DNA of 63,489 nt, counting the filler, from Reclinomonas americana ATCC 50394 (Eukaryota), in assembly GCA_048213135.1 (NCBI GenBank). It is 8 parts of 8 records of this genome, joined end to end, with 100 filler letters (N's around TTAATTAATTAA, not from the genome) between each part and the next. Parts side by side here need not be neighbours in the genome. Positions count along the whole stretch, not along the records: positions 32,378 to 57,294 come from AFZH01019022.1; 7 more parts are not named here. One strand, written 5' to 3'. The number at the start of each line of letters is the position of its first letter. Positions within the stretch are counted from its first letter, which is position 1. Below are positions 6,543 to 62,404 of this stretch, piece after piece. The translations under genes were made by a program, and so were the position numbers. Under the pieces are notes generated by a model. The model worked only from the letters and a program-made list of their open reading frames with translations. It was not told the origin of the DNA and made no database searches.

Positions 6543-6642
6543 NNNNNNNNNNNNNNNNNNNNNNNNNNNNNNNNNNNNNNNNNNNNTTAATTAATTAANN
6601 NNNNNNNNNNNNNNNNNNNNNNNNNNNNNNNNNNNNNNNNNN
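6543..6642. other. Artificial 100-nt assembly spacer (N-run with TTAATTAATTAA); the same spacer occurs at 13023-13122, 21193-21292, 25262-25361, 32278-32377, 57295-57394 and 62305-62404
   Basis: Seven identical N44-TTAATTAATTAA-N44 blocks that place stops in all six frames. Confidence 0.97.
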
Positions 6643-21192: not shown

Positions 21193-21292
21193 NNNNNNNN
21201 NNNNNNNNNNNNNNNNNNNNNNNNNNNNNNNNNNNNTTAATTAATTAANNNNNNNNNNNNNNNNNNNNNNNNNNNNNNNNNNNNNNNNNNNN

Positions 21293-25192: not shown

Positions 25193-25361
25193 GTGCGTCA
25201 AACCTGCTGCGGTGGAGCAGGAGAAGAGTGCAGACACAGGGAAAGACACACATGCACAGAGNNNNNNNNNNNNNNNNNNNNNNNNNNNNNNNNNNNNNNN
25301 NNNNNTTAATTAATTAANNNNNNNNNNNNNNNNNNNNNNNNNNNNNNNNNNNNNNNNNNNN

Positions 25362-32222: not shown

Positions 32223-32497
32223 TGTCTTGTGTGTGATGGCACAACTGCGGTTGGCTCAGTTGTGTGTGTGTGTGTGTNNNNNNNNNNNNNNNNNNNNNNN
32301 NNNNNNNNNNNNNNNNNNNNNTTAATTAATTAANNNNNNNNNNNNNNNNNNNNNNNNNNNNNNNNNNNNNNNNNNNNGATGCATTGAGTAGAGAGGGTTG
32401 ACGGAAAGCGCTGACCTCGACAATGTGGTGCGATTAACAAGCCTGTAGTAGAATGTGAGTGAGCGTATGCGACCCGCAAGAGTGTACGCCAGTTCGC

Positions 32498-35400: not shown

Positions 35401-38400
35401 CTGAAGAGTCCTGGTAGTTCTCCATCCCCCTCTTCGTCTCTCTCTCCTCTGTCGACGTCCTTCTCATGCAGTGCATCGTGACTGCATACAGCGCAATAGT
35501 CTCCTGAAAAGTCTTGCAAGTCCACAATCCCCCTACCTCGCTTTTTCCTTGCTCTCCTCTCCAAATCCCCTCTCTGAGGTGCAACAAGACAACTGCTTCA
35601 AGTCATTGCGCGAAGCCGACACATCTCCCTCCCTCCCTCTCACTCTCATTGTGCGTACGGCGACAGTGCAGTGTGCGGCGGTCATGTGAAGAGTATTGCA
35701 AGTCTACCGTCTCCCTTCTCCTCTCTTTTCCCTCTCCGAGTTGAAAGACAACTACGTCCCTCGTCTGACAGTCTCTCCCTGCACACTCTGCGCGTGGCTT
35801 GCTGAAGACTGCTAAAGAGTCCGGCAAGTTGTCCGTGTCCCTGTCTCCTTGTCTCCCTCTCTCTCTCTTACACCCTGCGCACAGCCACTGTGCACTTTGC
35901 ATCCTTTCCTTCTCGCCCCATCCCTCTCAGCACACGGTTACTACTGTGCTAAACTTCCTCATCGCTCATTCTCCTTTCTCTTCTCCTCTCTTAGTTTGAC
36001 AACTCAACTGTGTGCCTACAGTAAGTGCGTGAGCCGTGTCTCTCTTTCTCTCTGCTGCGAGTTCTCTGTGTGTGCGTCTTTTCGAACTTGCTCCCTTCTC
36101 CCTCTCCCCACCCTTCCACCTCCCTCCCTCTCCCTCCCCTCCCCCTTCCCTCCCTTCCCCTCCCCCTTCCATCCCCTCTCCCTTCCCCCCTTTCCACTTT
36201 CCCGCACCGTCACACGCTGCGTTCGACGGAAGCGATCCGCATTCGGGCACATAATCGTCGACACCCACGAGTGGTCATCTGCACGCAGCCACCACGCTAC
36301 TCAGAAGTGCACTGTTCGCACTAATCAAGCAGCATGCACACACCTCTCACAGCCGCCCACACAGCCACAGCGCGTCTCATCAACCAACTGCGACAACGAT
36401 TGACGCGTATCACCGAGCGCACGAGCTCTGTGCGCGTTCAAGTTAGAAACGAGCGTAGAAACACAAGAGACTCGCAAGAACAATGGCCACAGAACGTCGG
36501 AATCGTGAAACAGCCACGAAATGCCTTTCAAGTGCCGGAAGTGAGTCTGACCAAAAGAACGACAAGAGTGAGCAGTGCGATGCCACAAGGATTATGCGAT
36601 AGTCATACACACCTGCATTTTCTGCCTGCAGCCCGCGCTCGCGCAGGTCGGCGGTGGAGAACACACTGTGCACAATCACACACGCGCACTTTCAGGAACA
36701 ACTTGAGAAAATCGCCCGACGCGATACACACCCGGCAAACTTGACGCCAGCCAGCTCAGCTTGCCGCAATGGTATTTTCAACATGGTGACACATCGGACC
36801 AGCTGCCGGTCGCTCGCCTGGTCCATTTTGTAGCCAATGTACAGCTGGATGAGATAGATGACTTGAATCACTGGTGCACGCGCGCAGGGTGGTGGTGAGT
36901 GGTGAGCAGGCTCGTGGTGACAGCGGGTCGGTGAGTGCTTACCAATGACAATCGAAAATGTCGAGCTCCTCAGCAGCTGGCCCGTGAAGAGTGACAGCAG
37001 GTCGGCAGGACTGAGAATCACCACATTAGCTCACTTGCGATTCGACAACACCGCCGAGTACAGACGCAACGAGACAAAGGTAAAATGAATGTTGAAGATA
37101 TCGTGCACTGCAGAGAGAGAGAGAGAGAGAGCAATGCGAATCAGCACGATTGAACATCCAGACAAAATTCTCCACCCGAAGGACGCACAATTCACGCTAA
37201 AATCCGTCATGTGATTACAACGACACACAAACGACTGCACGTCGTGAGTTCCGCGCGTCACTCGCACAAATCTGTCACGTGTGTGTATTCGTCAGGTCAG
37301 AGCGTAAACGAACAGCACAATGCGTCGTGCGGCGTCGCAACGTTTTGCATCCGTCCGATATCCACTGCTGCCTGGTCTCGTTCCAGAACACACAAAGCTT
37401 GCCGAAGTCGGCAGCAGTAGCTGTAGAAAAAGAAAACAGAAAGGCGCCGTGAGAAGCCCTCGCCTCGCGCGAATGCCATCGTTCGCACGCACGATTGTCA
37501 CTGCGGTACACGGTCCGGTTGCAATCTGTGCAGACACGTAAGCACGTGCGCCTATTCGTCAGCTGACGCACATAATTGCAATGCAAAGCGCAACGGCTGT
37601 CATCCAGGGCCACCAGCGTCGTGTCGCCATCGTCAACTGCCTCGGGTGAGTGCAAGCCACGCACTCCACAACCATCAATGTACTCCAACACATCGCGCTT
37701 TGCCAGGAGGTGAGACACGACACATTCACGGGCAGGCAAGCATGCACATGAGACGTACCAGCTGCGGCGCGACGGCGGCCAGGAGCGCGCTATCTTGACG
37801 AGCAATCTCGAACGTGAACGATTCACCCGCAGTGGCGTTGAGAGCGATCGGCACTCCGTTTGCCGTTTGCAGAGACACTCGCTGGACAGGACTCAGGAAG
37901 ACGGTGGTGGAGTTGCGGCTGTCCGTGTAGGGCAGCAGACCTGTGACAGCCATGTAATGGGAAGACATGCTTCAGACTACTGCACGCAATACACCAGGTG
38001 ACCAACCATTGTCGATAAGTGTCGAGGTGATGATCGGGTAGACACCCTGCAGTCGCTCCGTAACGCTCAATGGGAACTGGTACTGCGTGACCAGGGAGGA
38101 GGCAACGTCATCCGTCGGGGGCACGGTGAAGGTGGAGCTGTTGGAGAACTGTGTGCGCAACATTAACAGTTCTTTTGTCAGCAGTTTTCGAGTGACGTGA
38201 GCAGGCTGCCCGGGCAGCACAGACCTGGATGCCGGGCGCCGTCGCCGACGGCGAAAGGTACGCAGACACCAGCTGTATGTTGGTGCCAATGATGGCAATT
38301 GCAGGATCGCTGGCGGTCTTGGTGTTGACAGCACGAAATCCGACAGTGGACAGTGCCGTGATACCATTATTCGCCATCTCTCCGTTCAGCACTGTGCCCC

Positions 38401-41400
38401 GCGTGGCTCCAAACACCGTATCCACCGTCGACACCAGCAGCTGCACAGTGAGCCAGGGATTGAGCACACGTAGCTGCTCACGACGAACAACTAAAATTTC
38501 CCCTGACAACAATCTGCACTTCTTGTCCTCTCTTCAGTCTCCGCTCTCTCCATCAAGAATCTCGCCACCGACATGCAAGCAGTCGGCGAGTGTGCTTTGA
38601 GAATGAAGTAAATGAGAGGTGTGTCTATTCCTTGCCCTTCCTTCATCTTTCCTCTCTCCGTCTCCCCTTCTTCCTTCTCCTCACGCTATCTCCCTCGCCA
38701 CCAACATGCAGCAATCGGTGAGTGCGCTTGAGAAAGACACAAGTGAGAGACGAGTCTACTCTGTCTCCGTCTCTCCTTCTTCTTTCTCCTCACGCTCTCT
38801 CCCTCGCCACCGATGTCGACTTTCAGCGATCGGTGAGTGTGCTTTGAGAAAGACGCAAGTGAGAGGTGTGTCTACCTCTCTCCGTTTCTCCTTCTTTTCT
38901 CCTTCTCTCTCCTTCTTCTTTCTCCTCACGCTCTCTCCCTCGCCACCGAAATACAGCAATCGGCGAGTGTGCTTTGAGAACCAAGCAAGTGAGAGGTGTG
39001 TCTACCTCTCTCCGTTTCCCCTTCCTTCCTACATCTCTCCCTCCTTCTCCTTCACCTCCTCTCTCTCCCTCTCGCCCTTCTCCCTTCCCCTCCCCCCGGT
39101 TTCCCCATTTCTCTCACCTGCACGGAGGACACTGGAAGATAGCTGCCAATCGTGGCCATGTGCACAGCTGTTTGCATCAGGGAACTTGCGGCGGTTGTTG
39201 CAACGGCGGCCGCGGCAGAGTCACCGCTCTTGCCCATATCACGCAGTGAGCTGACATGCGAATGCGCCAGTGAGTAAACGAGTTTAAGGTACGCTGAAAA
39301 AGGTGGAGATGACAGCACCTGGCCAGATCTCCAGCCACAAACAGCATGGTGGTGGTGGTTTCGGGAGAGAGTGACAAGTCGATTTTCGCAGCGGTCGCCG
39401 ACAACAACATTGCGGCGTCACGAACGGCTGCTCGGTTAGAAGAGACTGCACCGTCCTTGTGAGAATCAAGAAAGAGACGCGCGCGAGATACCCACATGGT
39501 AGCAGGGTGTCTCACCATCGAGCAGCGCAGATTGGTCACCCACAGTCAGTGCCGATACGCCGGCACTCAGCGAGCCCATGGCATCCGCCACCTCACTGTC
39601 GGTAAAGTCGGTAAGGTCAAGCTGCTGCGCTCGGTCAAAGATGCCGCGGAGAAAGGCTCCGTCACTTGCAGTTGTGGACGGTGCGGTCGACTCGAGAACC
39701 ACAATCGTGGAGTAGACATCGACAGACGCGCCGTATACATCGCGAACCGTGACGCCGACTTGCAGGTGATTGCCGGTGGAGGCGCTCCCAGCCAGCGGAA
39801 AGATAACGCCCCTGATAACAGAAATCGTACTGGCCGTGATAAAGACCTGTGGACGAGAAAGGGGAAGGGAGGTCAGCGTGAAATGAAATGCTGCATTTTG
39901 GGGACGAACTGGTTCTTTCAAGACCAACCTTGGTGCCGAGCGACGGGTGCACGTAGAACGGGAGATAGGACACTGGACGCGTGCGCACATACAAGCAGGT
40001 GAGATACAGTTCCATTCGATGAGCACGAGAACAACAGGCGACGCACGAGGTTGATCCTTGTCCACAAAGTCGGTCATTGTGAAGGTAAAGGCGGTGATTC
40101 GGGCCACGCCACTCAGCGGCGTAATGGCAAGAGTGCCAGCAGTCGGCAAATCATTGATGTCGAGTGTGATGGAAGGAACAACTGGGGCGAGGCACGTCGT
40201 CAGGCACTTCTATCACAGCACGGGTACAGCATAGCAAGACCCGGACGTACCTGGAGTGCTCAGCGCGGGCAGTGCCAACAACTCAAACACATACTTCTTG
40301 TTGCCCTCGAAAACACCCTCCTTGATGCGCACAGCAGGCGGCTGTCCAGGAGCCGATGAAGGAAAATCGAAATCAGGCAAACCGAGCACCAGCTCCTGCG
40401 TCGACCCTGCATTGCGCACACAGATGCGAGTTCAGTAACACGACTGCGAATACGTCTCGCTGAATCGCTGATACCTTGCTGATACGCTCGCCACGAGAAG
40501 CTGGTGTCCGTGGGAGTGCCGAATGCAGTGGCGGTGATGGAAATCGAGCGCAGCGGGTTCAGCCGTGCAGTTGAAGCGCCGACAGCCAAAGGTGACGCCG
40601 AGACCTGTGCACGCAACACCATGATGAATAACAACGCCACCTCGCACCCAAGCAACAGAACGTCGACAAACCACTCTGAATGCGACAGATTCTCCTCCTT
40701 GGACTGTCACGTCTGCGGTCGCGTGCCGGTTGCGAGTTCCTCGAGTCACTGTGCACCCGAACGAGTAGCTGCAGGGAAGAGACGTGAGAAGCCCATTTCC
40801 CTCCTTGTTAGGCACTCTGGGTGATGCCGTCACGCAACATGCCCGGCGTGCTGAAGCCAGCAGCAATGGTCAGCACTGCAGACCGCTCCGTCGAAACAAC
40901 GGATGCCCCACAGGGTGTGCCCCCGAAAGAGCATGTCCACGTGAACACCACCGGCACGTCTCGCACCAGCGACCGAGTTCGGTCAACATCCACCAGTGTG
41001 GCCTGCACGGTCACAGGTCCGCCGACACCAACCACCGGCCCTATGGGGGTCAACGACAGCTCCAAGTCATGGAACTCTGTGCGCGCGGGTGACGAAACAG
41101 AACACAAAATGAGTGTGACAAGATGGCAGATACACGCAGAACGCAGCACGCAACGAGTGACAATAGCTTCTGCCGCTGGCGTCAAGTCTCCCGAGTTCGC
41201 GTCCGTGACGACAAACACGAAGAGATCGGAGTAGCCGGTGGCCGCCTCGAGGCCGGCCAGAGTGCACAGCACCGGAGTCGTCGAGGTCCTGTTGAACGTC
41301 AATACCGTGTGAGTGAATGAAAGAGTGATGGAGAGAGCGGGCAACACACACGGAAACTCACCACAAGCAGGGCGATGTCGTAGGATGCCAGTCGATGAGT

Positions 41401-44400
41401 CGCGTTCGCCCGCTTGCTGCGCGCTTCTGAATGACTTGAAAACGTGGATTCGGACTGATCAGAGGCAGTCAGCGCACCAGTAAGGAATATTGTCAGTGCA
41501 GTGACAGGAGGAGGCTCACCCTTCTGCCGCATTAGGTGGGCCGTTGGCTTGCACAAACCTGCACATTACGAGCAAAGCTTTCACAAGGGAACGAGAAATT
41601 CGTAGAAACCCGGTCTCTCTGTCGCCCTCAGTGTCCCTCTCAACGCAACACTGGAGCCGTCGTATAAGTCGGGTTGCCGGCATTCCGCATCGCTGCCGTG
41701 TGCACGAGGAGAGTTTTCCCTGCACAGCCCGCATCAGCACGCTGCGATTCGAATAGAAGATGGAAGCACGCATGCACACGCACCCAAGACCAGCTGCTGA
41801 CGCCCAAAGTCGTTGTCATTGGCCAGCGCCACACTCAGCGTGTAGTTCGTGTTCGGCTGCAGCCCGGTGGCCGTACACACCACGGTGTCGGTGTATGTCG
41901 TCGGCCACGGGCACGGATTCGGCACAGTCGACAGCCAGAGCACTCCGTTGACGAATACCTGCACTCGTTCGCCAGAGGTGCGCTCATGCCATGTTGAAGA
42001 CGACAGTGTCGAAAATGTGCGCCGCATGACAAACGTCACATTTTCTGGATGGCGCAGCAAGTCCATTACGGCCAACTGGTCGGCGATGCTCGTCTCTGCA
42101 GTTTGGGGCGACGCATTCGCACAATCAGTGAGGCACTGGCGCAGCAAAGTAGGGAAACCACTAATCTTCAGTGAGACTGACCGATACCAAGCGAGTAGCT
42201 GCCTGCTCGGTTGAATGCTCCCACGGACGGCGCAGCAGTGTAGTCGACGCAGACAGCGTACCAGGATTTGAATCGATTCAAGAAGAATCCGCTCACCACG
42301 ATTTCGTGACTCGCATCCACGGAGGTGGTGCTCTGCTGTGCAGTCGCCAAGTCGACTGTCAGCGTGCCGTTGCGTGTCGGACCCAACAATGGCGCCACGC
42401 AGGACGTCGCCCACGGCATGCTGACATCGTCGACGGGTTCCAGTCGCACAGCCCGCAGCGAGGTCCGCGGCTCCAGTCCCAGACCGCGAAGAGTGAGTCG
42501 TGCAGTGGGATCGTTCGCCGGAAGAACGAGCGGATAAATTGTCTCCACACGTGCTGCAGTCGGGCGGGGGTGCACAAGTGAGACACTTGCCAGTTTCATA
42601 TAGAGGGGCTTGCATAACAGACCAACAAAAATGTACACCGCCTCCTTGACATTGAAGAAGGCGCCATTTGGGTCGGCTGCGGCGGCGTCGAAACACAGCG
42701 AGTATAGGCCGGCCTGCAGTCCACTAGCCACCGTGATGAGCATGCGAGTGTCGCCATTCGTCGACTGCAGCGACACCGTGTCGGAGCTGTCAATGGTCAA
42801 CGAGCCGGTGGCAACACTGGCCGCCGGCAGGACCGTACACACAGTGGCCTCACGCTCAAAACGGACCCGGCGCAGCAGAAATTGCGGCTGCAGAGCGACG
42901 CCGCTGACGGTAAAGATGGAATTCGGCACGTTTTCGAGAACCGTCACCGGTGTGAAGGAGGCCACGGAGGCTGCAAATGCGACGCAGAGTCAGCAGAGCA
43001 CGCTCAGGTGAGACAGGATGAAGGAGAAAGGCCGGCCAGCGCAAGATGGGCATTGACTGCGTGCAAAGCAAGACACCAACTCTTCCCGGTGTCCGACTCA
43101 CAAGTCTCTGAAACGATGAGCGACTGCTTTTGACTGAGAACAGGCACCTCTTCGTTTTCACGCATCACTCTCCTTTCTCCCCTTCCTCTCCCCCCTCCCC
43201 GCGCTCCCTCTATCTGTCGCCACTCACCAATGGCAGCACTGCCGTACTGCACAAAGAGTGGCTGCGCGTACACCGACAGATCAACACACACGGCATATGT
43301 GTCGAGTGGCAGCGCGCCCGCTTGAATAACAACTTGCGTGCCGTCAGTGTCGTCCGCCACAGCGCCAAAGAGGAACGGCATCGACACTGTGCCCGTTGCT
43401 GGACTGCTGCCAGCAGCAGCACACGTGGTCGACGCCTCAAACCGCACACTCCGCACACTCACATTCGCACGCAATCCGTCACCCGAGATCGTGAAGCGCG
43501 CTGTTGCATCTCGCCGGAAAAATAACAGCGGAGCAACACCGACAATGTGCGGAACATATAGCTCACGCACAATCGGCGACACAGTCGGCAGTTGCTCCGG
43601 CCATTTTTGTAGAGCTGTGGTGGGTGAGTCGGAGACGAGCTCAACGCACACCGTCCAGCGTCCGGCAGGCACACCGGCGGCAAAGAGAATTTGGAGACTG
43701 GTGAAGCTCGCATTGGCAGACAGCGCAGAGGGAGTGATGGAAGTGACTGGCGATGGATACGTGCACAAGGCGCCTCGTTGCAGGACCACACTCCGCAGGG
43801 CGCCCACAGGATCCATGGCGAAGCCGGTGAGTGTGACGACAGAGGAGATTGCGTTTGGAAGCACAGTGACTGGTTGCATCAGCGTGGCGATGGCTGTCGC
43901 GGAGCACAACGTGAGTAAGGAGTGCTTGACGAAGAAGATTCACAAGATGTCAACACAAACCGACATAGAGGCGGCGCGAGGAGACTTGCGTCGGCGCACC
44001 GTCTGGAGCCGCTGCTGTCCATTTCACACAGACGCAAAAGACGCCAGCGGGGATTCCATTGTTACCGTCCATGTTCAGTGGCACCAAGGCGACACTGCCG
44101 TCGGCCACCCCACTCGGATTCGTCACTCGCGCACCAAGTACCACCACGGACCCCGCGGGAAAAGGAGTCAACGCAGCACATGAGGGTGCGGGGGTAAAGA
44201 TGACTTGGTCGATGCTGTCGCTAGTCAGCCCCATGCCTGCACAACGACGCAATCTTGAGCAAACCCCGGCAGAAAGGGGCAGAATTGCGCTACCATGACC
44301 CCTTCCCTCGTTTCCTGCCTCATACATACATACCGATAAGCGTCACCGGTATCAGGGATGCACTGGCGAGAAGTACTGGAGGCGAAAAGGAGTCGGCTCG

Positions 44401-47400
44401 TCCGACCGACACCAAGAGCACGGAGGGTCCAGGGGTGAGGGTATTTGGTGGATCGACGGCATATTCCACACAAATCTGTGAAGCGAACAGTAAGACGAAC
44501 TGCTATTCCGAAATCGGAGTCATCGATGTGCGCGCTTCTTCTTACCTTGTACACGGTCGGCGACAAGCCACCCTGCGGGACAACCACTCGCATCATGTCG
44601 TCGGCTGCGCTCGCAGTTTCTAGAGCGCTGGCACGCAGCGGAGTCTGGTCGCACGTGCCGACAGATGCGGATGATGCCACAGGCGAAAAGTACACGTTGC
44701 GCACGGCCGCAGCAGGTCGAAGGCCCGAGCCGACCAACACGATCGATGAGCCAGACACGGTGGCCAGCACGCTCGGCAGCACCACCGAGGAGGCTCCAGC
44801 TATGCAACGTACAAACAGTCACAACGAGGCTGCAGACTATCATCGACAAAGCACATTGATGTCGCTCACCCAAATTCAACACGCTGCCGACCTTGACAAA
44901 TGAGGCGACAGGATTGCTGTTCAACAAGTCAACGCACACACTCCACTGTCCGAGCAGCAGCGTCGGCATGTTGCCGATGGAAAACGTGAACGCCGGCAAG
45001 CCGTTCAGGGACGGTGCTTGCGTCATCTCTGCCACCACAAAGTTGCGCGACAGCGATGTGCTTGCGGTCAGCGCACCGATGGAACACTGCAGGCCACGCT
45101 CCAGGCGAACTGCGCGTATCATGTCCAATCCAAGACCGATGCCCGCCAGCGTGAGAGGTGCCACGGTGCTGGCGGACGAGATGAAGTCGGGCGAGAACAT
45201 CGTGACGCCTGCGTATCGGAATATAAGAATGAAATGAAAAGATGCCGCTCCTCCTAACAACTCGCCACACACCGCGGCTGCAAATGTTCGTGAACTTGAA
45301 CAGCGGAGGACACGTGCATGATCCGTCGCCAGCGACACCAGAGTTGCATATGCCGCCATTCTGGCACGGGCAAGCTGCGGAAGACAAACGAAGATGCATG
45401 AGCAAGTAACGCGAGAAACAACACGGAATTTGACTCACGAGTGCAAATTGAGCCATACGCCGTTGACGAGCAGTCTGCAGTGGTGAACGACTGAATGCTG
45501 CCTCGCTGCATCGACGATGCATCCAGGATGCGATAATAGTACGTGGTGAGTGGGAAAAGATTTTGAACGCTCGCCGTGACAACAACATTGCTGGTGGATG
45601 GTGACGGAGTGGCGTCGACGGTGGCAATAGGTACTGACAGGCTGCGAACTGCATTAGACAAGTCTGAAAAAGCGCAGCAGACACAAGATTCATAGAACAT
45701 CGGTCAGCGTAGGTCGCAGCACCGTGAGCACGCCAAAGAGAAACGTACCGGAGATGGCCAGAATGCGACTTCGTGGTTCGAATGCGGCACCCACCTACGA
45801 GAAGATGTGTGGTGAGCAAAACAGAATATACTTCTAATACAGCACGTACAACTTACTGGAGTGTTAAATGTTGCAGTGAATGGAGCCCCATTATTGTCGC
45901 CACTTTGCCCATAGCCAACGCCGGCCACTGTTGTAACTCCAAATCCGTCAATCACACGAATGAGTTTGCGTTCATCCTAGTCACACGGAACGTCAGAATG
46001 AGCAAGTTTTGCGCGACGCACATGCTAGAGGCGTAACTGCGACATACGTAACATCAACAACGTAAACATTTCCAGTGACTGGATCGAGGCCAATACCGAC
46101 AGGCGATGTAAACAAAGCGTCTGTCCCCGCACCATCCACGAAGCCTGACATGGAGCTACCAGCAATGAGGGTGGCCACAAATGTGGTGGTGTCAATCCGG
46201 AAGATTCCTGGGATTCCTTCGTCGCACACATACAGAAAACCGCGCAGCTTGTCCAGTGCAACTTGACGCAAGGCAGCTGACGGCGTCACGGTGGACGTAA
46301 TTGCTGGAGTTGTAATGGTTCCGTTATCGATGTTGACGCGCCTACAAGAGCATTCGTGTGTTAGCGGAGGTGATAAGCGAAAACGATTGCAGTCATGTGG
46401 GTCGAACCGAAGTGGGCCTAGCTGGGCAACGTAGGCCACACGAGATGCAAAGTCTGCCGCGATACCCTGCGGATAAGAGAACTGGCCACTGGCCAGCGTG
46501 GAAACTTGTCCGCCAGTCAGTTTTCGCACAACGTGGTTGTTCTGCAGTGAGCATGCTTGAGCACAATGCTAATCAGTGCATCCTGAGCTAAGTGAGCAAG
46601 TAACTCTATCAGCAATGTACACCTCGGTTCCAAGAGGATCCACTGCCACAGCATTTGGGCTGCGAGAGAAAACGGTAAGCATCTTTGCTCGCCAAACAAC
46701 GGCCTGCAAGCAAGGAGACTGACCCATTGAACAAGGCAGATAAAGCCGGTCCATTTTGTAGCCCTGAAGAGTTGTACACTCCGGCGATTGTTGACACGAC
46801 GGCTCCGGGACTGATTTTCCTGATTGTATGACGACTGACGCGGCATGACAACAGTTAGTAGAGCACAGAAGATGATAAAACTGCGTCGACTACGCACTAT
46901 GAATCCGGGACGAAAATGTTGCCAATGTCATCAGCGGCGCCAGCCTGTCAACAGGATATCGATATCAAAAAACTGCGCCCAATTACAGACTACAGAGAGA
47001 CGCAACAGCTGGCCCAACAAATCGTGCCGCCGATCCCACGCCGTCGGCGGAGCCGGAGAGACCGGGTGTCCCAGCAAGCGTGGCCACCACTGGCTGCGAA
47101 CTGAACGGCGAAGTCGACAGCTCAAACCTCGGAGTCACGCCACTGGATTGCACCCTGCCAACGAGAGTGGCGCTGGTGATAGTGATGTCCCCAACAGGCA
47201 GCGTGCTCACAGTTTCCGAGGCTATGATGTGAGAGAAGACCTGTTTTGAGATAGAAATACACAGACAGGGCAGGGTGGTCATTGTTCGCAACTGACAGGT
47301 TCCAGCGGCGAGCGAGTGGAAAAGGCAACAATCAAGCCTCGTGCTGATACAATGTTGGTGGCGCGATAATAGTACGTTGCAGATGGAAACAGCGACGCGG

Positions 47401-50400
47401 TCAGCGATACGATACGAGTCGCTACGGAGCTGCTGGGTGGCCTGGTACTCTGGCGCCAGGAGGGGAGTGCAAGAAGGCGGATGGCGTGGTTGCTTGAATC
47501 TGTAAGGAGGGGGAGAGTGTAAGAACAGATGCCAGTGCATGCAAGCGTCGACGCCAACAAGCAGCACCTGCCACAAACAGGCCCCCGCGAATCCAGGCCA
47601 CACCATTCTGTGAGTGAGCGCCCTGGTTAGCATTTCTGCAGAACATTTTCAGGCAAGACATTCGACCAAGTCCTACCGGCAAGTTGAGTCGCGAACTTGT
47701 CAGGTAGCCATCGGTAGTGCCTGGTACAGTAGCCAAGCCAGCCACGGTGCTGACCTGCGCTTCCGTGGCGTCGATTTGCCTAATGATAGAATTATTTGTC
47801 TGCGACAGAACTCGGTTGAATCGCTCATTCCTATTGCAAAAGTACATGGCTCGAACAGCGACGCAACATCTGCAACGTAAACCACATCATCAAGGCTGAC
47901 GGTGATACCCGCCGGACTGTTGAATGTTGTCTCGTTTATCACGGCGCTATCCAAAGAGCCGACGCTGCCAGGGGACCCAGCGAACAAGGAAACAACGGCG
48001 GAGGCCAGATCGATTGTTCGGATGGTGTGGTTGCCAGTGTCCGCCACGTACAGCAGCGTATCCGCACTCGCCAGTGCCACTGCGCTTGGTGTATTGAACC
48101 GCGCAGTGGAGCCCGTTCCATCTGTGCTACCAGCTGAACCGGATGCGCCAGCAACAACTTGCGTAGCACCGGCTTGTGTAACAGACCTGAGAAGTGCAGC
48201 ATGGTGACGCATTAGTTCCACGGCGAGAGGGCGCACGAATCCATGTGGACAGTACGTACAGAATAGTATGGTGACCGCTGTCGGCCACGTACACCAGCTG
48301 GCTCGCGGTTATGGCCAATCCGCGAGGTGCAGACAAATTTAGATTCGTGGTCAGGGTATCCACTGTGGTGCCACTGATGCGCCGCACATTGGTGTTACCG
48401 TCCTGGAAGCACATCATGTGAGACGATGATGATACGCATAGTGACGGAGCGAGACACCAAAACCTCCACGACAAAAATGTCGCCGGTGGCTTGGTGCACG
48501 GCAACGCCTGTGGGACTGTTTGTGCCATATTGGTCAAAGAGTGAAGATGACATAATGCGCAGAAATATGGTCCGCACACCTCGAAAACATGGCTGACGAC
48601 ACGGATCCATCCAGAGCTCCGGGCTGGCCAGTGCCAGCAATCGTCGACACAAGGCCACTTAAACTCATTCGTCGAATTTTGTGGTTGCTGCACATCGAAT
48701 GAGCGGAGGCAGCGAACCGCGACAAGCGGAATCGATGCAACGCAACTTTCGATCCGCAATGACCATGGAGCCAGTCGACGCATCCGCTGCAATGCCCTGC
48801 AATCCTCGGGTGATCAGCAAGCGGAAGCCACATGACTGCTGCCCCGATCGCTTCATGCTCACCCATGGAGTGAAAAACGCGGCGCTTGCCCCTTGTCCAT
48901 CGGCGGCTCCGGTGACGCCAGGCGCACCAGCAATCGTCGACAGTAGCGTAACACCAGACGCAAATGTGGACGGCGACAGGGAGACATCAAAAGCACAAAT
49001 CATTTCGACACCCGTGCCGTTCGGGTCGATGACACCATTGAGGATCGCTGTTGTGGTGGTGACAGCAGTGGCGACATTGGTGGTGACCAAGGGGGCTATA
49101 CAACCGGCGTGGTGAGAGGCCGAATCCATCAGTGTTTTCACAGACGCACTCACCAGGCGCTGGAGTAAATGCTTGAGAGGTGAACTGCACAGTAGACCCG
49201 ACGCGATTGCTGACCGTGTCTACGGCTCGGTACACATATGTTGTCAACGGCAGAAGAGAGGAGACTGTCGCGGAAAAACTCGTTGGCGTGGTTGCAGTGA
49301 GCGGACTTGCTGAAATCGTCAATGGCGGCAACACGGCCAGTCGTAGGGAGCCATTGGCAGAGTCTGGCACGGCAGTCGTGCATAAGACGGCAGGCAAGGG
49401 TCAAGGAGGACAGCAAGAAATGACTCACCGGCAATCACCAGTCCATGTGCCCACGCAGCCAACCCGCGCTGTGCCGTGGCGTGAGCTGCTGGTGCGCGCT
49501 AAACTCCGACAATGTCTTGACACACTCACCACAGTGCTCAGACGCGATCCGTTGCCTGCCCCGTCAATTAAACCTCCAGTGTCGACGACGCCGAGAAGCG
49601 TGGACACGCTACTCGCAGACTGCTGGACCGCGCGCACAGCATTTCCCTACGCCGCCATAGATGCAACGCATTAACAATCACTCCAATCTCGACATACCCA
49701 CCACCAGGCACGCAGCGCAACGTCAGCAACATACAGCGTGTTGCCATCTGTACTGGTAGCAATGTGCGCCGGCAACTGGAACCGTGCGGAGGTAAGCTCC
49801 CCGTCAAGAGCCCCGGACATCCCAACGGTGCCGGCGACAAGTGAGACGGTGGAGGTGGACAAATCGATCTTGCGAATGACCCGATTGCCGAGATCAGCCA
49901 CGTAGAGAGTGTTGCCATCTGGGGCCAGCGACACTGCCGAAGGGGCATTGAAACGCGCGCTGACGCCAACTTCGTCCGCTGAGCCACTCACACCGGCAGC
50001 CCCAGCGACAGTCGTTACTGGTCCGGCAAATGCGAGGCGGCTGCAAAGCAAAGCGGTTGTGAGAAGCGAAAATCACAAAGCTGTCATCTGGCTGCAACAC
50101 GTCCAACCGAATTGTGTGGTCGAGAGCATCCGCCACGTACACACATTCGTGTGCTAAAGACCCGTCAACGGCGATACCCTGCGGCAACCTAAAGTTGCTA
50201 CTAACGGTGGATACTTGGCCATTGGCAATCTTGCGTAGCGAATGGCTACCCTCCTGTGACCACGGACAATGGATGAGAACAACACATCAACTCTGGGCTA
50301 ACCTGGTGCAGCGCATCATACTCACTTCAGCGACATACACCTCGCGATTCAGACTGTCGAATCCAACCCCCGTTGGGCTGTGAACAGCAATGAGAAAACG

Positions 50401-53400
50401 ATCAGCAACGAGTGTGCAGTGCCGCACTGTCTAACATCTTGCAGTGCCGATCACGCACCGTGAAAAACGTGCTGTTTCCGCCGGACCATCGACGCTGCCA
50501 ATAGCCCCAGTACCGGCCAACAACGTGACCGTGCCGGCGAGCGTCACCGCCCGCACGACATTGGCTCTGTTGAGCATGTGATAGAAAACCATCAGTGGGT
50601 GACTGCGATGACGCGCGAATAAGCATGACGCACTGATAGTCGGTGACGAAGAACGTGCCGCTGCTTGCATCCAATGCCACGCCCTAATTTCTCATCGAAA
50701 TATGGAAAGGATGTTAAAACGCACACTATCAGGTAACAAGCATCCTCACTGCGTGAGCCCGGCGCACCCATGGACTCGGGAATGCCCCGGTGCTGGAGGC
50801 AACCAAGGTGGACAGGACAGGCACTGTGCTGCCAAAGGCGGCGGACGAGAGAGCAAGATGGAAAGCATTGCTGGTGAAGCCCGTGTCAACTGTCGCATTC
50901 AGCACAGCGCTGGTGGAGGTGACAGACGACGCGACCAGCGTGCTCACAACAGGTGCTGCGATGCAAGGAAATGGGTACCAACTTTCAACGGCGCAAAAAT
51001 GACACGCTCACAAACCCGGATTCGCCGGCATCGTGGTAAACTGACTTGACTGGGGGCGAGCCGACAAGTCGGAAGGGCTCACAAACCGATACACGTATGT
51101 CGTCGACGACAACAACTGCCGCACACTCACTGACGCCGAATAGCTGGTGCCACGAATACCGTCACTGGAAGGGCTGATAGCTGTCACATCGGGTGGGATG
51201 GTGACAAGCCGTATGCGTGAAGATCCAGCATCTGACACAAGCACGCACGGTAAACATTCTCATCTGGATCGAAGAGATCACCACTGCACGAACGCACCGG
51301 AAACAAACAGAGTGCCATGCACGGCTGACATCATGCCAGGTGCATTGAATGTAGCGTTGAAGCCGTAGCCGTCGACGGCAGGACCGGTTGCGGAGGATGC
51401 TCCTGCAACAACTATTATCTGACTGCCGGAGAGATATCGGATGCAATTGTTGCCCGTCTACAAGTGGCAACCTTCAGTATGGGGGTAGCAAGAGAGAACG
51501 GGATCATATGAGACGCAACATCAGCCACGAATATTGTCAGCGAATCTGGGTAAACGACGACGCCGGTAGGGTTGTTCATGAGAGTGCCAGTTGCGCCAGA
51601 CATGCCCGGCTGTCCAGCAACGAGAGTGACGACGAATGTGCTCAGGTCCACCGACCGGATCACGTGATTGCCACTGTCGGCCACCAACAGACGCTGTGTC
51701 GTTGAATCCAGTGCGATTCCAATTGGTTGATTGAATGAGGCCGTGATGGCAACACCATTTGCGTATCCGCTGCTTCGTCGAGTGCCAGCCAGCACGCTTA
51801 CAAGCCCACTGGCGGAGGTGCGACTGTGACACAAAGATGATGAGACAGGTGGTACAGCAAGCGTGGCGCTCTGCAGGGCGGAAAACGCACAAAATAACGT
51901 GCAGCGCAGCATCGGCCACATAGAACTCGCCACCGGAGAATTCGGCGACCGCAACACCTCGAGGAGCCTGAAAATCAGTCGTCACTGTGGACACTTGATT
52001 CGCTGACAGGCGACGCAGGCTGTGGTTGCCATCCTACAAGAACACAACAACAATGAATACATGTGCACAGATACCAAAAAAACGAAGCTTTTAATTCGCG
52101 CACCTCGGTGACAAGAATGTCCCCATTGCGTGCGTCCACAACTACGCCAAACGGTCTGTGACGAACGCGGTCATTTAAGCAGATTGCCAATCTCATCACG
52201 TTCTGCGGCATACGCACCGTGAGAAACTGGCCGCAGTATATGGACCGTCTGACGAGCCCGAGACACCAAGAGTGCCGGCCAGTGTGCTCACGCTGCCATC
52301 CATACCCACTGATCGGATCACATGGTTGCTGCACAAAGGAAAGGAAAGTGGGTCCGACTCGCAAATGGAGCAAGGGCAAACACGCGCAGGCGGTACGAGC
52401 GTACTTTGTGTCGCAGACGATAATGCGACCAGAGGTCCAGTCCACAGCCACTCCCTTTTGTGATTGCCAATTACAATGCAAGTAAGTCGCGAGTCTGGCC
52501 ACAGCAGACAACGTTCAACAACAACAAACCATCGGTGACGATAACGACAGGCTGTTGTCCACTGCCGATGACCCAGCTAGTGTGGACACTGTGGCCGCAC
52601 CACTGCCAAAAAGATCGGCTGACGTGGCCAGCTCGAACTTGAAAGAATTGGTCAAAGAACTGGTGAGCGTGGCAGCGCCTGACAACGTGGCCGAATTCAC
52701 ACCGACACTGGTGGCGGGATCGGTGGTCAACGAAGTCACTGAGATCAGCACACGAAAAGTGAGCAATTAGCGTGCCAGTTGTCCCGGGTCACAATATGCA
52801 AGACTGTACCCACCGAGATTCGTGGTGACAGAGGCCGTGGGCGACCGAAAAGGCGAGTTCAGGTCCACCCCGCGATATATGTATGACAAGCCCGAAACCA
52901 GTGCGACGCTAGCCGTCAGAGTGACCGACGTGGATCCAGTCGCAGTGGATGGCGAAGTGACATATGGACTCGGCGGCAGCGTGATGATTCGGATGGCACT
53001 GTCGCCAGTGACAGTATCGTTTGTCGTCAGTGTCACAGTGGAGCCCTCGACGACTACACCGTGCTGCAGAATGGGGGAAATGGCGCAAAATGAGACAGCT
53101 TCCTCGTTGACTAAATGCACGACAGATCGAACCGGTGTTGGGAAAGACGCGGAGGTGAGTGGTCCATCATTGGAGGTGGACCAAGCTGGTGAGCCTGCAA
53201 GTGTGCTCACACTGCCGGATGTCGCAATCACCCGCACCGTGTGGTTGCCGGCCTGGCGCGACAGAAAACGACGTAAATATTACGCATGTTGGTGCGCATC
53301 TCCAGCGCACAAAACAACTCACCTCGACTACGAACAGAGAGCCAGAGAGGTGCTCGTATGCCACTCCTATCGGATCGCGGAACAAGGCGCCACCCGGAGC

Positions 53401-56400
53401 ACCATCAGTATATCCTGGTGACGACGACTGACCGGCCACTGTAGTGACTGCCATGGTGACCAGCACAATCTTGCGCACAATGTGGTTGCCGGTGTCGGCG
53501 ACATAGAGCACTTTCTGATTCGAGTCCAGAGCGAGGCCGATCGGCGAGCGAAATGAGGCACCGGTGCTTACGGCGTCTGTGTTGCCCGGAACACCGACCG
53601 AACCGGCGACGGTGGCCACCAGTCCTCGGAAAGACACACGACTGACAAAAACAAACAAACAGGAGCAGCAGCAATCAGCGTGTGTTAATTCACGCCAAGA
53701 GAGACCTGCATGCGCGAACGCCAGCAACTAACCGCACAGTATGTAAAGAGTCGGTGATAAACAGGCACTCACGATCGGCGAGCGAATCCACAGCGATTCC
53801 ACGTGGCTGCGTGAATCTCGCGTCGCTGCGAATGCCGTCATCGTGACCAGCTGCGCCGACAATAGAGCCCGCCAGGGTCGACAGCACACCAGCGGATAAC
53901 TTGCGAATGGCATTGTTTCCGCTCTGTGCCCACAATTGAGAGGCGCGCACGTGTGGCATGCAGACGAGAGACAGACAACTGCTACATACATCAACAATGA
54001 AAACATCTCCTGTCCCGCGGTCGATCCCAACAGAAGTCGGACTGGGTGGGAGACCCAAAGCCAGCCCTGTCATTACATCGTTGCTTCGCATGCACTGAGT
54101 GAACCACAGACCTGGATAACAGAGCGCCGGTCGGCGCGCCTTCGACAAAGCCGGCGACGCCAATCTGACCGACGAGAATCGTCTGGACTCCGATGACCGA
54201 CACAGAACGAACAACGTGGTCCCTGAGAGGCGAGCATAGAGGCCCGTGAGATGAAAGCAAAACAATGCACACACGCACACACAAAAAAGGACTCCAGCTA
54301 GCTTCACGTGAAAAGTGCGTGCAAATCAACTCGCAAATCACCTCGCATCGGCCACAAGGACGTTACCGCTGCCGTCCACAGTCAAGCCCTGCACCGAGTA
54401 CCGAGAGGTTGACTGACACACACAGTCTCAAAGCCAGTCGAGATGAAGCTACCACCAACCATAAAGCCGACTACTGCAGCGGGATCCGGCGAAGTTGGCG
54501 GAGCTCGCGTAACAGTCTTCAAGGTCGACACCAGTGGAGCATCGCCAAATACATCTGGCGACCTGGCCACCTGCACTGTGCCCTGAACAGAGGACCCGTT
54601 TCGAGGATTCACAAGCGCGCTGAAGGCAGCGGCCGTTAGCGCGCGAGTCAGCGAGTTTGACGACAGCGAGACCGTGGGTGTGGTCCAGGTGGGTGCTGAT
54701 GGGGCAGGTTGCAGTTCAAGCGAGTACCACGTTTTCACAGCACGAAAGAATACCTGCGGAGGTGGTGATGGAAACCACGGTGCCGGAGAGTACGAGTGTC
54801 GATGCTGCCGCACGCACAAAGTATGTCGTCGCCGGCATCAACTGCGAAACCGTCGCGGAAAATGTCACCAGTTGTGAGTTGCCTGCTGCTGTGGACGGAG
54901 AGGCAGCGACCGTGGTTGCTGGCAGTACGACCTGCCGGAGTAGCACATTTCCCGTGTCTGACGCAGCAGCAAGTCAGTCTCTCCGACGACCAAACGAGGC
55001 ATGACAGAGAGGGGCAAACGCGCCAGCAACAAGCAGTCGTCCACGCTTCAAGTCAAATGCAAGCCCACGCTGGCGATTACATGATGAGGGACTGCGTGAG
55101 GGAAGGGAGCGTAAGAACAGCACTGCCCGCACCGGAGACGACAGCCGCGAATCGCTGGCGGATCCGTCTGTCAACCCACTTGTACCAGGCACGCCGGCGA
55201 CAACATCAAGAGAGCCGTCCACTAAAGACAGGCGTCGAACAACATGATTTGGCGTCTGATAACGAATGCAGTGAGTTGGGCAATCGCCGCGAGCAGATTG
55301 GAGGCCTCACGCTTCGCAACATCAGCAATAAACAGCATTTGGCCTGCAACATCGAGAGCAACCGTCGCGACGGCGGACAGCACAGCTGTGGTCGATGGCA
55401 GTGTCGACACTGTCAGCGTCGCAAGGTCGACAAGGCGGATGGTGTGGTTGCCGGCATCGGCGACATACAGCAGGCCGCGATTCGGATCGACGATCACATC
55501 TGCGGGCGAGCTGAACCTGGCCGAGCGTGCGACAGCGTCGATGAAGCCCTGCTGGCCGGGGGAGCCAACAAGCGTGGCGGTGATGCCTCTATACGAGACT
55601 CGCCTGTACGCGCACACAGAATGGGCAAGAGAGATAGGGAAAGGGAGAGAGAGAGAGAGGAAGGAGAGAAGAGAAGGAGAGAGGCAAGCGAGGAGAGACA
55701 CAAGACAGCATAGAGGGAGGAGAGACACACACAGAGAAAGAGAAGCAGAGAGAGAGAGAGAGAGGGTGGAGAGAGAGACACGCCCACACATACACATACA
55801 CGCTATCTCTCTCTTCAACGCAAGCAAGTTGCAATCGTGTTGCAACATAAAGCACTCACCGAATGGTGTGATTCAGCGTGTCGGCCACGTACACACACTC
55901 GTGATTCGTATTGGGATCCGCGGCAAGACCCTGCGGACCGCCAAACTGCGCGGTAACAGTGGTCCCGCGTGGTCGGTCAGCAGTTCCCTGGCTGCCGTTG
56001 CCGGCCAACGTGGACACAGCGGAACCGACAATCGAGCGAACAGCATGGTTGGATTCCTGCAAGTGTGTGCGCGCAGTGAGACGAGGTTGTGCAACGGGGC
56101 AGCGCAATCGCACACAACTTCGGAGACGTAGATGACTTGCGTGTACGGGTCAATGAAAATGTCGGTGGGGCTGAGGAAAGAAGGTCAACAAATACCGTTG
56201 ACGCAAAAGAGCACCGCAAGAGGAAACTCACTGCGAAAAGCGCGCACTGCTGGTGCCGTTGGCAAAGCCCGGCGTTGCGACAACGCCAGCCAAGACACTC
56301 ACGGTGCCAGTGGCAGTCACTTTGCGAATGACATGCGTACTGCACGGTGATATGGAAGAGTGAGTTGCGACACAAACACAGCCGGCTCATGAAAAACAAC

Positions 56401-57394
56401 ATACGCACTCGTACTCTGCGACAAATACATTGCCGGTGGCGTCCACCGCAACACCCTGCATGAAAACAAAGTGGCCGAGCGTGAGCGATCTCACATCAAT
56501 ACGAGGCGGTGCGGTGCCTCTGTCCCACAAAAGCACACACCCGCGGGGAGGAGAACGTGGCCTGCAGAGTGGAGACCGAAATCACTCCGTCGATGGCACT
56601 GGACACGCCAGAGATTTGGAAACTGAGACCGCTCACCGCGGTGCCGGCACTCGAGAGGACAGAGCCCTGCAGCGTGATGGTGGTGCTCGTCGTCGCAGAG
56701 GGAGCGAGGGTGGTGATGGTGATGCCCGTAGGATCACCTGCAACACATTGTAAGAACCCCAGCCAAGATTCTCTCCCTGTCTTTGCCAACGAAACTTTGC
56801 GTGTGCACGACTGGTCGGCGACTCGAGCATGGCACCGACAGCAGCACCACCTTCTCGACGGAGAGCGGCAGACCCGACCTCATCGACATCATCGGCCGCG
56901 CATCGTGATGGCCGGTGTCGCTGCTGTCATCCATCTCCGTCGCGCGAACACGCACGTGTTGCAAACACGACATGTCGTACTCGTCCACTCCCACTGCTGC
57001 TGAGGCGGCGAGCGGCGGCGGGGGCGTCGGCGTCCACCACAACTCGCAACCATTGGCGATGCGCAGGGAGGCAGTCGGCACCTCGGAGACAAGTGAAAAC
57101 GAGTGTCGTTGGTAGCGATTGGCGTCGACAGCGAGGAGTGTGCCAAGGAGGACACCGAGTCCGTGTGAGGAGGGAGGAGGAGGGAGGAGAGGGGGTGAAG
57201 TTGTCGTCGGGAGGAAGTCAATATCCGATGGCGCGACATTGGCTGTGGCGGTGCATGCGGTGAGAAGAAGAAGAAGAAGAGGAGGAGGAGGAGGNNNNNN
57301 NNNNNNNNNNNNNNNNNNNNNNNNNNNNNNNNNNNNNNTTAATTAATTAANNNNNNNNNNNNNNNNNNNNNNNNNNNNNNNNNNNNNNNNNNNN

Positions 57395-59014: not shown

Positions 59015-59082
59015 ATGGCAGCCAAGGTGCGCTCACACTTGCGTGCGTGTGAGAGGGATTCATGTTGGTGGCTGCTGCCCTT

Positions 59083-59130
<48 letters not shown>

Positions 59131-60204
59131 TGCCCATCTCACTGTGAATGGTCGAAACAGGTCTTGCAGGGTCATACACGGACGGTAAAATCTGTCACAC
59201 TCACTCCCGACGGCCTCCATGTCGTGAGCGGGAGCAACGATGAGACGGCGCGAGTGTGGTCGCTGACGAGTGGCGAAGAAGTGCGACGATTAGAGGGTCA
59301 CGCTGGAAGGGTGCAATCAGTCGCCGTCTCTCCCGATGGTCAGCTTGTTGTGAGTGGCAGCTTCGACAGAACAGTGCGGGTGTGGTGTCTGACGAGCGGC
59401 GCGGAAGTACGACGGTTGGAGGGACACACTGGCGTGGTTTACTCCGTTGTTGTCGCCCCTGATGGTCAGCACATTGTGAGTGGCGGCTTGGACAAGACCA
59501 TCCGCGTGTGGTCCCTGGCGAGTGGAGAAGAAGTGCGACGGTTGGAGGGACACGCTGACTGGGTGCTCTCCGTTGCGGTCACTCCCGACTGCCAACATAT
59601 CGTGAGCGGGAGTGAGGACTCCACGATACGAATGTGGTCACTGGCGAGTGGAGAAGAGGTGCAGAGGTTGGAGGGACACAATGGAAGAGTGTACTCTGTC
59701 GCCGTCACTCTCGATGGTGAGCGCGTTGTGAGCGGAGGTCGTGACATGACAGTGCGCGTGTGGTCTGTCGCGAGTGGGGAAGAAGTGCGGCGGTTTGAGG
59801 GACACACTGACGCGGTGGTATCCGTCGCCGTCGCCCTCAACGGCGAGCTAATTGTGAGCGGGAGTTATGACAAGGTTGTGCGTGTGTGGTCACTGGCGAG
59901 TGGGCACGAGGTGCGACAGTTCAAGGGACACACTGGTGTCGTGTGGTCGGTTGCGGTCACTCCCGATGGGCAGCGCATCGTGAGTGGGAGCAACGACGAG
60001 ACGATTCGAGTGTGGTCCACGCTGCGTGGGCTGGCCCAGCAGGAGCTTGCGGCCGCACGACTTGCCGTACTGGCTGTCAACGAGCTGCTTGCCGAAGAAG
60101 GTGACCGCGATTGGATCCTGGTCGATGTCGTGTTGCGGTGTTTTGTGCTGGAGGACGCAGAGGTGCTTGGGTGGCAGGCGCAGGGGTGGGGGGCTGCTGT
60201 GTAA
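59015..60204 (+). CDS. WD40 protein with 7 highly similar 42-aa repeats and a short C-terminal tail
   Basis: Exon 1 MAAK (59015-59026), intron GTGCGC..CAG (59027-59160), then an uninterrupted exon with seven xLEGHxxxVxSVAVxPDGxxIVSGSxDxTxRVWSLASGEEVR units. Confidence 0.88.
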
Positions 60205-62304: not shown

Positions 62305-62404
62305 NNNNNNNNNNNNNNNNNNNNNNNNNNNNNNNNNNNNNNNNNNNNTTAATTAATTAANNNNNNNNNNNNNNNNNNNNNNNNNNNNNNNNNNNNNNNN
62401 NNNN

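Follow-up and report, generated by a model that had tools for sequence, protein, structure and literature searches.

Six tandem NHL modules in a spliced gene of Reclinomonas americana, each probably an NHL propeller inserted in a split FN3-like domain

A locus of Reclinomonas americana ATCC 50394 (assembly GCA_048213135.1) raises the question of whether two short flanks separated by an entire run of NHL blades can be the two halves of a single β-sandwich domain. The DNA analyzed (the window) is a stretch of 63,489 nucleotides made of eight parts from eight records of this genome, joined end to end with filler, and the locus occupies the minus strand of the part derived from AFZH01019022.1 (positions 32,378 to 57,294). 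An initial annotation had proposed that NHL β-propellers are inserted inside an FN3-like domain in a module that is repeated six times. In the analysis described here, the probability that each module is an FN3-like sandwich with a six-bladed NHL propeller inserted in a loop is estimated at about 0.75.

The locus contains six N-flank and six C-flank pieces in strict alternation, with NHL blades in between. In module 5, the N-flank reads APLVTTNVATAV-TTTAILNGVIDPNG-EMICAFDVS and continues through the strand VTLLSTIAG into six NHL blades, which close with ...SSNHAIRLLAL and are followed by the C-flank, ...IVSLTASLFPSATYYYRATN...GLIVAFST. The NHL family (PF01436) is matched by 10 of 94 minus-strand fragments at E ≤ 0.01, seven of these reaching the gathering score of 20 bits (21.2-37.5 bits). 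On the spliced modules, a blade hidden Markov model (HMM) detects all six blades in four cases (modules 1, 2, 3, and 5), whereas module 4 yields five and module 6 yields four. The module count is six because NHL similarity ends at 56560 and 46014, with none above or below these positions in the window. These limits and the alternation of the flanks confirm both the number of modules and the span of 45475..56737 given in the initial annotation; its example module, 49105-47290, is module 5 (49095-47297). The peptides that it quoted are found on the minus strand where it had placed them (PLVTT...DPNG, 49093-49016; FSATV...YRAV, 49277-49221; VTASV...RILD, 45580-45521; GSIQSFTT, 45502-45479), in different reading frames.

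A further sequence feature of the blades is an (H/R)EC(V/L)(Y/F) motif, which had been noted as shared by several modules and is present in three of the six. This HECVY or RECLF motif, with an extra cysteine in blade 3, is located at 55889-55903, 53759-53773, and 50137-50151, that is, in modules 1, 2, and 4 only.

The nature of the flanks was approached by profile comparison. A profile of the six exons that comprise the N-flank and the start of the first blade (A1) has 982 matches among 1.84 billion representative proteins, of which 150 were listed. In the listed proteins, 583 adjacent N→C pairs are observed, in which the matched parts are 13 residues apart at the median; for the 497 C→N pairs, the median distance is nine residues. 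NHL blades are present in 9 of these 150 proteins, and the order N-flank, blades, C-flank in none of the 150, which are FN3 arrays. The reference for hhalign was a 99-column profile of 120 contiguous domains from the listed proteins (median 98 residues). The six N-flanks of the window align to columns 2-49 of this contiguous domain (probability 96.5%, E = 9e-10) and the six C-flanks to columns 57-99 (97.5%, E = 8e-12); with 12 bacterial rows added, the matched columns are 2-43 (98.7%) and 54-99 (98.9%), respectively. Because the two sets of flanks align to complementary parts of the same contiguous domain, they are, as judged from sequence profiles, complementary halves of one FN3-like domain, with the break in the C-C′ region. 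Pfam calls the contiguous copies fn3, Pur_ac_phosph_N, or PhoD_N. C-flanks 1, 3, 4, and 6 (four of the 94 fragments) match Pur_ac_phosph_N only at positions 43-93 of its 93, and the scores of the window C-flanks for this family, 17-23 bits, are below the cut-off of 30.

The connections between modules are short. The array opens with an N-half and closes with a C-half, and the linker from strand G of one sandwich to strand A of the next comprises ~6-15 residues in the window, often proline-rich, and ~5 residues in L044, a bacterial homologue described below. In FN3 domains, the chain termini are located at opposite poles. The short linkers, the ends of the array, and this topology fit self-contained modules that are joined like ordinary tandem FN3 domains.

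Relatives of the modules are found in bacteria, in intron-free form. A query with a window exon returned only bacterial NHL proteins, with blades that are 40-50% identical, and the longest exon, scanned against metagenomes, yielded 79 loci, all at ≤62% identity; the product of the array gene itself was not found by the exon query, by the N-exon profile (150 listed proteins), or by the metagenome scan. In L044, an uninterrupted open reading frame (ORF) contains the module order three times. Modules B and C of L044 comprise a full A-B-C half, six blades, and a C′-E-F-G half, whereas the N-half of module A is only partial by eye and is missed by the flank HMM. The same gene is present at 100% identity in L080, a metagenome-assembled genome labeled uncultured Haloferula sp. 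Full-module HMMER envelopes gave only three distinct modules, since the repeats fragment the alignments, and architecture strings of flanks and blades were used instead. By this measure, modules with the order N-half, blades, C-half occur in six distinct Verrucomicrobiota genes among 159 loci: L044 (= L080), L081, L082, L085, L088, and L128. At least one such module is present in 6 of 230 proteins (proteins of 1607-5114 residues plus an earlier set). Two of the bacterial metagenome proteins, P0276 (4235 residues) and P0278 (4166 residues), contain six tandem modules each, the same array format as in the window gene, and in a tree, the modules of these two proteins are not intermixed with those of the window. 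The proteins that carry the modules in bacteria are giants that also contain RCC1 repeats, choice-of-anchor domains, and domains of Ig-like and cadherin-like type; in them, Pfam identifies NHL and at most the C-terminal half of Pur_ac_phosph_N. Two of the loci, L085 (3843-11309, plus strand) and L128 (1209-7703, plus strand), encode the split form and a contiguous copy of the FN3-like domain in one protein, a natural before-and-after pair for the study of the insertion.

Fold prediction was carried out on module B of L044 (426 residues, 14-row alignment), for which AlphaFold2 returned a model with a mean predicted local distance difference test score (pLDDT) of 92.4 and a predicted template modeling score (pTM) of 0.87. 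The closed six-bladed fold is taken from this model only. The N-flank forms strands at residues 8-18, 21-29, and 36-42, with block pLDDT values of 85-93 (residues 11-60), and the C-flank forms strands at residues 372-375, 383-387, 398-406, 411-413, and 417-420, with block pLDDT values of 82-92 (residues 381-420). The flanks appear to be rigidly placed in the model because the pTM of 0.87 exceeds the ~0.74 that is attainable from the ~315 propeller residues of 426 alone. Among the structures that overlay best on the propeller are 7djl_C (Z 44.3, root-mean-square deviation (rmsd) 1.6, 303 aligned residues), 6g7w_A (Z 43.5, rmsd 1.7, 303 aligned), and a teneurin-like protein, 9ifo_A (Z 38.0, rmsd 2.3, 313 aligned).

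The modules of the window are spread over many exons. Between 44.8 and 57.6 kb on the minus strand, no ORF exceeds 307 codons under translation table 11, and each of the three frames contains 80-101 stops; the array lacks a long ORF because GT..AG introns split the gene. These introns have GT...YAG ends and are mostly 49-135 nucleotides long, with one of 256, and read-through translation of the stretches between the coding pieces gives low-complexity sequence that is SL-, TH-, and RE-rich. Intron removal rebuilds canonical NHL motifs over the junctions, FFTPW|GIAAD and VIADRN|NHKIRR among them. Three ab initio gene models, in which dynamic programming drew on codon usage together with similarity bonuses, were discarded because many short introns went undetected. 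A profile-guided spliced aligner was built instead, for which A3, a 14-row alignment of bacterial modules that lack introns, served as the guide. Compared with a manual nine-exon model of module 5, the aligner recovers all eight internal introns, and only the two outer ends differ, the first exon extending seven nucleotides beyond the manual acceptor (49102) and the last ending nine nucleotides short (47306). The predicted models of the six modules are free of stops and divisible by three in length and comprise 401-423 residues in eight or nine exons each. Each C-flank exon can be joined to the N-flank exon of the following module by a valid GT..AG intron; phase 1 is preferred at four boundaries (58, 54, 60, and 58 nucleotides) and phase 0 at the fifth (56 nucleotides). 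Joined in this way, the six modules would form a single predicted polypeptide of ~2470 residues.

A reading of the region as a bacterial ORF was rejected, as no ORF under table 11 spans it. Other genes in the window are of eukaryotic type and encode a symplekin C-terminal domain, a WDR5-like WD40 protein, a neutral ceramidase, and a leucine-rich repeat protein. The intron structure and the type of these genes assign the region to a large multi-exon gene of a eukaryote, encoded on the minus strand, rather than to an ORF for a bacterial surface protein.

The introns also bear on the origin of the array. In a common alignment of the modules, four intron sites coincide in position and phase in all six (columns 101, phase 2; 141, phase 2; 162-163, phase 0; and 250, phase 2), and a fifth, at column 385, phase 0, is found in five of six. 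The window modules are monophyletic with respect to 14 bacterial modules (IQ-TREE, 20 modules; ultrafast bootstrap 100, Shimodaira-Hasegawa-like approximate likelihood ratio test 99), and this clade is retained upon addition of 18 more modules, including those of the bacterial six-module arrays (FastTree, 38 modules; support 0.994). Modules 1, 2, and 4, the bearers of the HEC/REC motif, form a sub-clade. Window modules are 30-40% identical among themselves and 34-37% identical to the best bacterial module. The shared introns and the single clade therefore place the amplification within the array gene, after intron gain, and make the array a clean example of module amplification. By this route, one ancestral intron-bearing module would have been amplified six-fold by internal tandem duplication. 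In midpoint-rooted trees, the window clade is nested among the bacterial modules, with weak support for the deeper branches, an arrangement that only hints at the direction of a transfer.

Several other explanations of the flanks and of the gene can be set against insertion. One is that the halves pair across module boundaries, such that the C-flank of one module and the N-flank of the next form the sandwich, as a circularly permuted FN3 domain or a domain swap, with the propellers as beads between sandwiches. These flanks are indeed sequence neighbors, ~6-15 residues apart, and paralogous halves are expected to be mutually compatible. Neighbor pairing and insertion make opposite predictions for a competition construct, a natural 491-residue stretch of L044 consisting of the C-half of module A, then the N-half, propeller, and C-half of module B. 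In the model of this construct, the N-half (pLDDT 88-94) and the C-half (86-93, with one loop block at 69) of module B hold their confidence and the adjacent C-half of module A drops to 45-78, which is the prediction of insertion. A lone L044 module already has confident flanks at a pTM of 0.87; with an N-half first and a C-half last, the array would be left with two orphan halves if neighbors paired; the linker of L044 comprises only ~5 residues, as against FN3 ends that are located at opposite poles; and some modules of L085 and L082 are separated by 100-190 residues, with both halves still present. We consider neighbor pairing quite improbable. It is likewise improbable that the flanks are not one domain at all, but independent small β-meanders or linkers that sit on the propeller or are flexible, the likeness to FN3 being a relic. 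That all Pfam matches of the C-half are under the gathering score, that the N-half lacks a match among solved structures, that no sandwich was reported by the fold searches, and that the split-chain result described below is weak would be expected for such flanks. Independent pieces would not be expected to align to non-overlapping, complementary parts of one contiguous domain at 96-99% probability, to be always found together around the propeller in the bacterial modules, to be rigidly placed (pTM 0.87, flank pLDDT 82-93), or to lose confidence when one half is orphaned.

The remaining alternative concerns the gene rather than the fold. The frame changes could reflect pseudogene decay or assembly errors instead of introns, in keeping with the absence of a long ORF under table 11 and the occurrence of N-runs in the window. 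All interruptions, however, are bounded by GT..AG, their removal restores NHL motifs and yields six stop-free modules divisible by three, and they occur at the same column and phase in up to six of six modules, unlike random decay; a nonfunctional gene is hardly credible. The insertion of the NHL blades in an FN3-like domain, as put forward in the initial annotation, is thus favored by the hhalign halves, the contiguous N→C pairs, the fold of the bacterial module, and the competition construct. Its proposal of amplification by internal duplication is borne out by the four intron sites common to all modules and by their monophyly, and the module tree that it suggested has the six window modules in one clade.

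A number of observations weigh against the insertion model or limit its reach. The reference domains were gathered with profiles derived from the window, such that similarity to them is partly by construction and only order and contiguity are independent. Against solved structures, the matches of the C-flank profile are individually nonsignificant (best E = 0.03), although most are FN3 domains by molecule name and are aligned over the second half, and the N-flank profile gives nothing meaningful (one irrelevant match, E = 1.4). The matches of the structure searches (Foldseek, VIA-align) are confined to the propeller of the L044 module B model (model residues 46-370) and carry no information on the flanks. 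In the competition construct, the C-half of module A has only three alignment rows compared with 14 for that of module B, a disparity that could alone lower its confidence. The split-chain test of flanks N5 and C5 of the window (ESMFold2) gives weak support, with a score of 0.34 versus 0.09 for the best of three controls; agreement of contacts between runs is at least 91%, and partner pLDDT at least 63. Among 78 solved complexes, 51 pass the mark of this test, as do 2 of 108 mismatched pairs, and scores of at most 0.60 account for only 5 of the 78 complexes and for all four mismatches that passed (of 180). The test was run without custom alignments, and FN3-like halves may pass it because they resemble FN3 folds already solved. 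For the fold, the evidence is drawn from models of bacterial modules with 34-37% identity to those of the window, and the pairing of N- and C-half strands is deduced from the competition construct and from the pLDDT and pTM values. In the window itself, modules 4 and 6 have fewer than six detectable blades, intron 1 of modules 1-4 is placed imperfectly by the spliced aligner, and the exon model and the linkage of the array to REJ and GPS pieces downstream are predictions.

If the propeller is inserted, the chain would exit the FN3-like sandwich after strand C, build the six-bladed NHL propeller, and re-enter the sandwich for strands C′, E, F, and G. The strand that follows FN3 strand C (...VSTLAG) would serve as the outermost strand of blade 6. 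With a blade-6 strand supplied by the N-flank, the propeller would be self-closing and its two ends adjacent, and a propeller whose ends are side by side can sit in a loop; this closure by the N-terminal strand is suggested by the ...VSTLAG motif and the strand list of the AlphaFold2 model. Successive sandwiches would be linked G-to-A by short linkers, as in ordinary tandem FN3 arrays, giving a rod from which six propellers bud, consistent with the "sideways from a stalk" display that had been proposed. The protein may function in the multivalent display of NHL ligand-binding platforms, as an extracellular adhesion or receptor protein.

Split domains as such are known from other surface proteins. 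Ig-like "split domains" project ligand-binding domains in Gram-negative RTX adhesins, including AhLap and FrhA (PMC12077191, PMC10865825). The window module would resemble the adhesins in that a stalk β-sandwich is interrupted by a whole domain with adjacent ends, which is projected off the axis of a giant surface protein. It differs in its host sandwich, which is FN3-like ("...ATLNG.VNPNG...FEYG...TTYYYR...FTT") and cut in the C-C′ region, in its budding domain, a six-bladed NHL propeller, and in its format, a six-fold tandem, whereas the RTX split domain is described as located in the distal ligand-binding region. The window gene is, in addition, spliced and eukaryotic, unlike those of the Gram-negative adhesins. 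No RTX-type family is found among the Pfam/NCBIfam matches of L080 and P0276 or among the scanned window fragments. The split-domain principle is already published for RTX adhesins, and the NHL/FN3 tandem module would differ in host sandwich, passenger, and format. Should the model be correct, it extends split-domain projection past the RTX adhesins to a new sandwich, a whole-propeller passenger, a six-fold tandem, and a eukaryotic gene.

Teneurins and bacterial teneurin-like proteins are similar to the window module in that they combine an FN3-type sandwich with a six-bladed NHL propeller, are extracellular, and have bacterial ancestry (PMC5851990, PMC13018210). In a bacterial teneurin-like protein, the FN-plug comprises residues 673-928 and the NHL domain residues 929-1255 (PMC13018210); the teneurin FN-plug is wholly upstream of the propeller and its sandwich unsplit, whereas in the window module the sandwich would be split around the propeller. 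No YD/RHS family is found among the Pfam matches of the window fragments. Bacterial multi-NHL surface proteins (P0004, P0012) have the same type of FN3-like domain together with NHL blades, but there the domain is uninterrupted and located after the propellers, as opposed to an A-B-C half before and a C′-E-F-G half after each propeller in the window. The integrin β subunit, in which the β-I domain is inserted in the Ig-like hybrid domain, also has a large globular domain in a β-sandwich loop; the folds and families are unrelated to those of the window module, and there is a single insertion. The open-access literature searched contained nothing relevant on propellers inserted in FN3 domains or on REJ+NHL+GPS proteins. 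Standard annotation shows only "NHL repeats", as the FN3 halves are invisible to Pfam in both the window and the bacterial proteins, and the module is probably under-recognized; the pair of N-half and C-half profiles provides a search handle for budding ligand-binding domains in giant proteins.

A more far-reaching scenario is that a split-FN3/NHL module of Verrucomicrobiota type was transferred to a eukaryote, where it gained introns, underwent six-fold amplification, and came to serve as the multivalent, ligand-binding ectodomain of a surface receptor with REJ and GPS, polycystin-1-like or adhesion-receptor-like. This scenario is tentative, and we regard it, taken as a whole, as possible but doubtful. 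If true, it would be a second independent case, in the style of the teneurins, of a bacterial surface architecture that became a eukaryotic receptor. The shared introns together with the bacterial relatives make such an inter-domain transfer of surface-protein architecture testable. The features of the array and of the pieces downstream are compiled in Table 1.

Table 1. Predicted features of the six-module array and its downstream context (positions along the window).
Feature	Position	Strand	Remarks
Array, six tandem modules (putative FN3-like N-half, ~six NHL blades, C-half)	45473..56735	-	~2470 codons, 51 modelled exons; spliced alignment
N-flank 1 (strands A-B-C + probable propeller closing strand ...VSTL)	56565..56735	-	
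Propeller 1	54941..56564	-	6 blades detected
256-nt intron in propeller 1	55604-55859	-	SL-rich low-complexity read-through
C-flank 1 (last blade strand + C′-E-F-G)	54758..54940	-	Pur_ac_phosph_N profile positions 43-85
N-flank 2	54520..54684	-	
Propeller 2	52998..54519	-	6 blades detected
C-flank 2	52818..52997	-	
N-flank 3	52578..52736	-	
Propeller 3	51221..52577	-	6 blades detected
C-flank 3	51029..51220	-	
N-flank 4	50804..50955	-	
Propeller 4	49350..50803	-	5 blades detected, sixth weak
C-flank 4	49173..49349	-	
N-flank 5 (APLVTTNV...)	48932..49095	-	
Module 5	47297..49095	-	nine exons, ~424 aa, six blades; manual model
Module 5 exons	49095-48863, 48796-48747, 48687-48580, 48515-48464, 48402-48260, 48186-47868, 47799-47677, 47607-47568, 47499-47297	-	
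C-flank 5	47309..47485	-	
N-flank 6	47076..47216	-	
Propeller 6	45653..47075	-	4 blades detected, others degenerate
C-flank 6	45476..45652	-	
Inter-module intron C4|N5	49096..49153	-	58 nt, phase 1, GTGAGT...TATAG
Other preferred inter-module introns	54696-54753, 52739-52792, 50956-51015	-	phase 1
Fifth preferred inter-module intron	47241-47296	-	phase 0; 71-nt phase-1 alternative
EGF-like piece just past module 6, probably same gene	45295..45372	-	Pfam EGF, E = 7e-4, 20.3 bits (cut-off 21.5)
REJ domain, possibly same gene	39673..40173 (within 39469-40209)	-	PF02010, E = 7e-12, 45.1 bits (cut-off 25)
GPS motif over two exons, "...CRCNHMTDFSV", possibly same gene	37193..37394 (within 37034-37892)	-	PF01825, 22.9 and 19.9 bits (cut-off 22.5)

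Downstream of the array and on its strand, REJ is followed by GPS, the order observed in polycystin-1 and REJ-type receptors. These pieces possibly belong to the transcript of the array, and they suggest a polycystin-1/REJ-like or adhesion-receptor-like protein. At E ≤ 0.1, PLAT and PKD_channel are matched by none of 42 fragments that cover 32.4-37.3 kb, a search in which matches are easily missed where exons are small. Between the EGF-like piece and REJ, at ~40300-45200 on the minus strand, ~5 kb of repeated β-rich coding pieces carry the recurring pattern ...RAVRLE...C...G.Y.VCVD..., and none of these pieces has a Pfam match.

Elsewhere in the window, the segments at 19262-20966 and 41734-43909, both on the minus strand, contain ORFs that overlap in three frames of one strand, the same signature of genes split by short introns that is observed in the array region. 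Seven identical patterns of two 44-base N-runs, 12 bases apart, are located at 6543-6642, 13023-13122, 21193-21292, 25262-25361, 32278-32377, 57295-57394, and 62305-62404 and represent the filler between the joined parts. In contrast to the intron-rich array gene, the ORF for a WD40 protein of the WDR5 type with seven repeats (268.9 bits, cut-off 250) runs without interruption over 380 codons at 59062-60204 on the plus strand.

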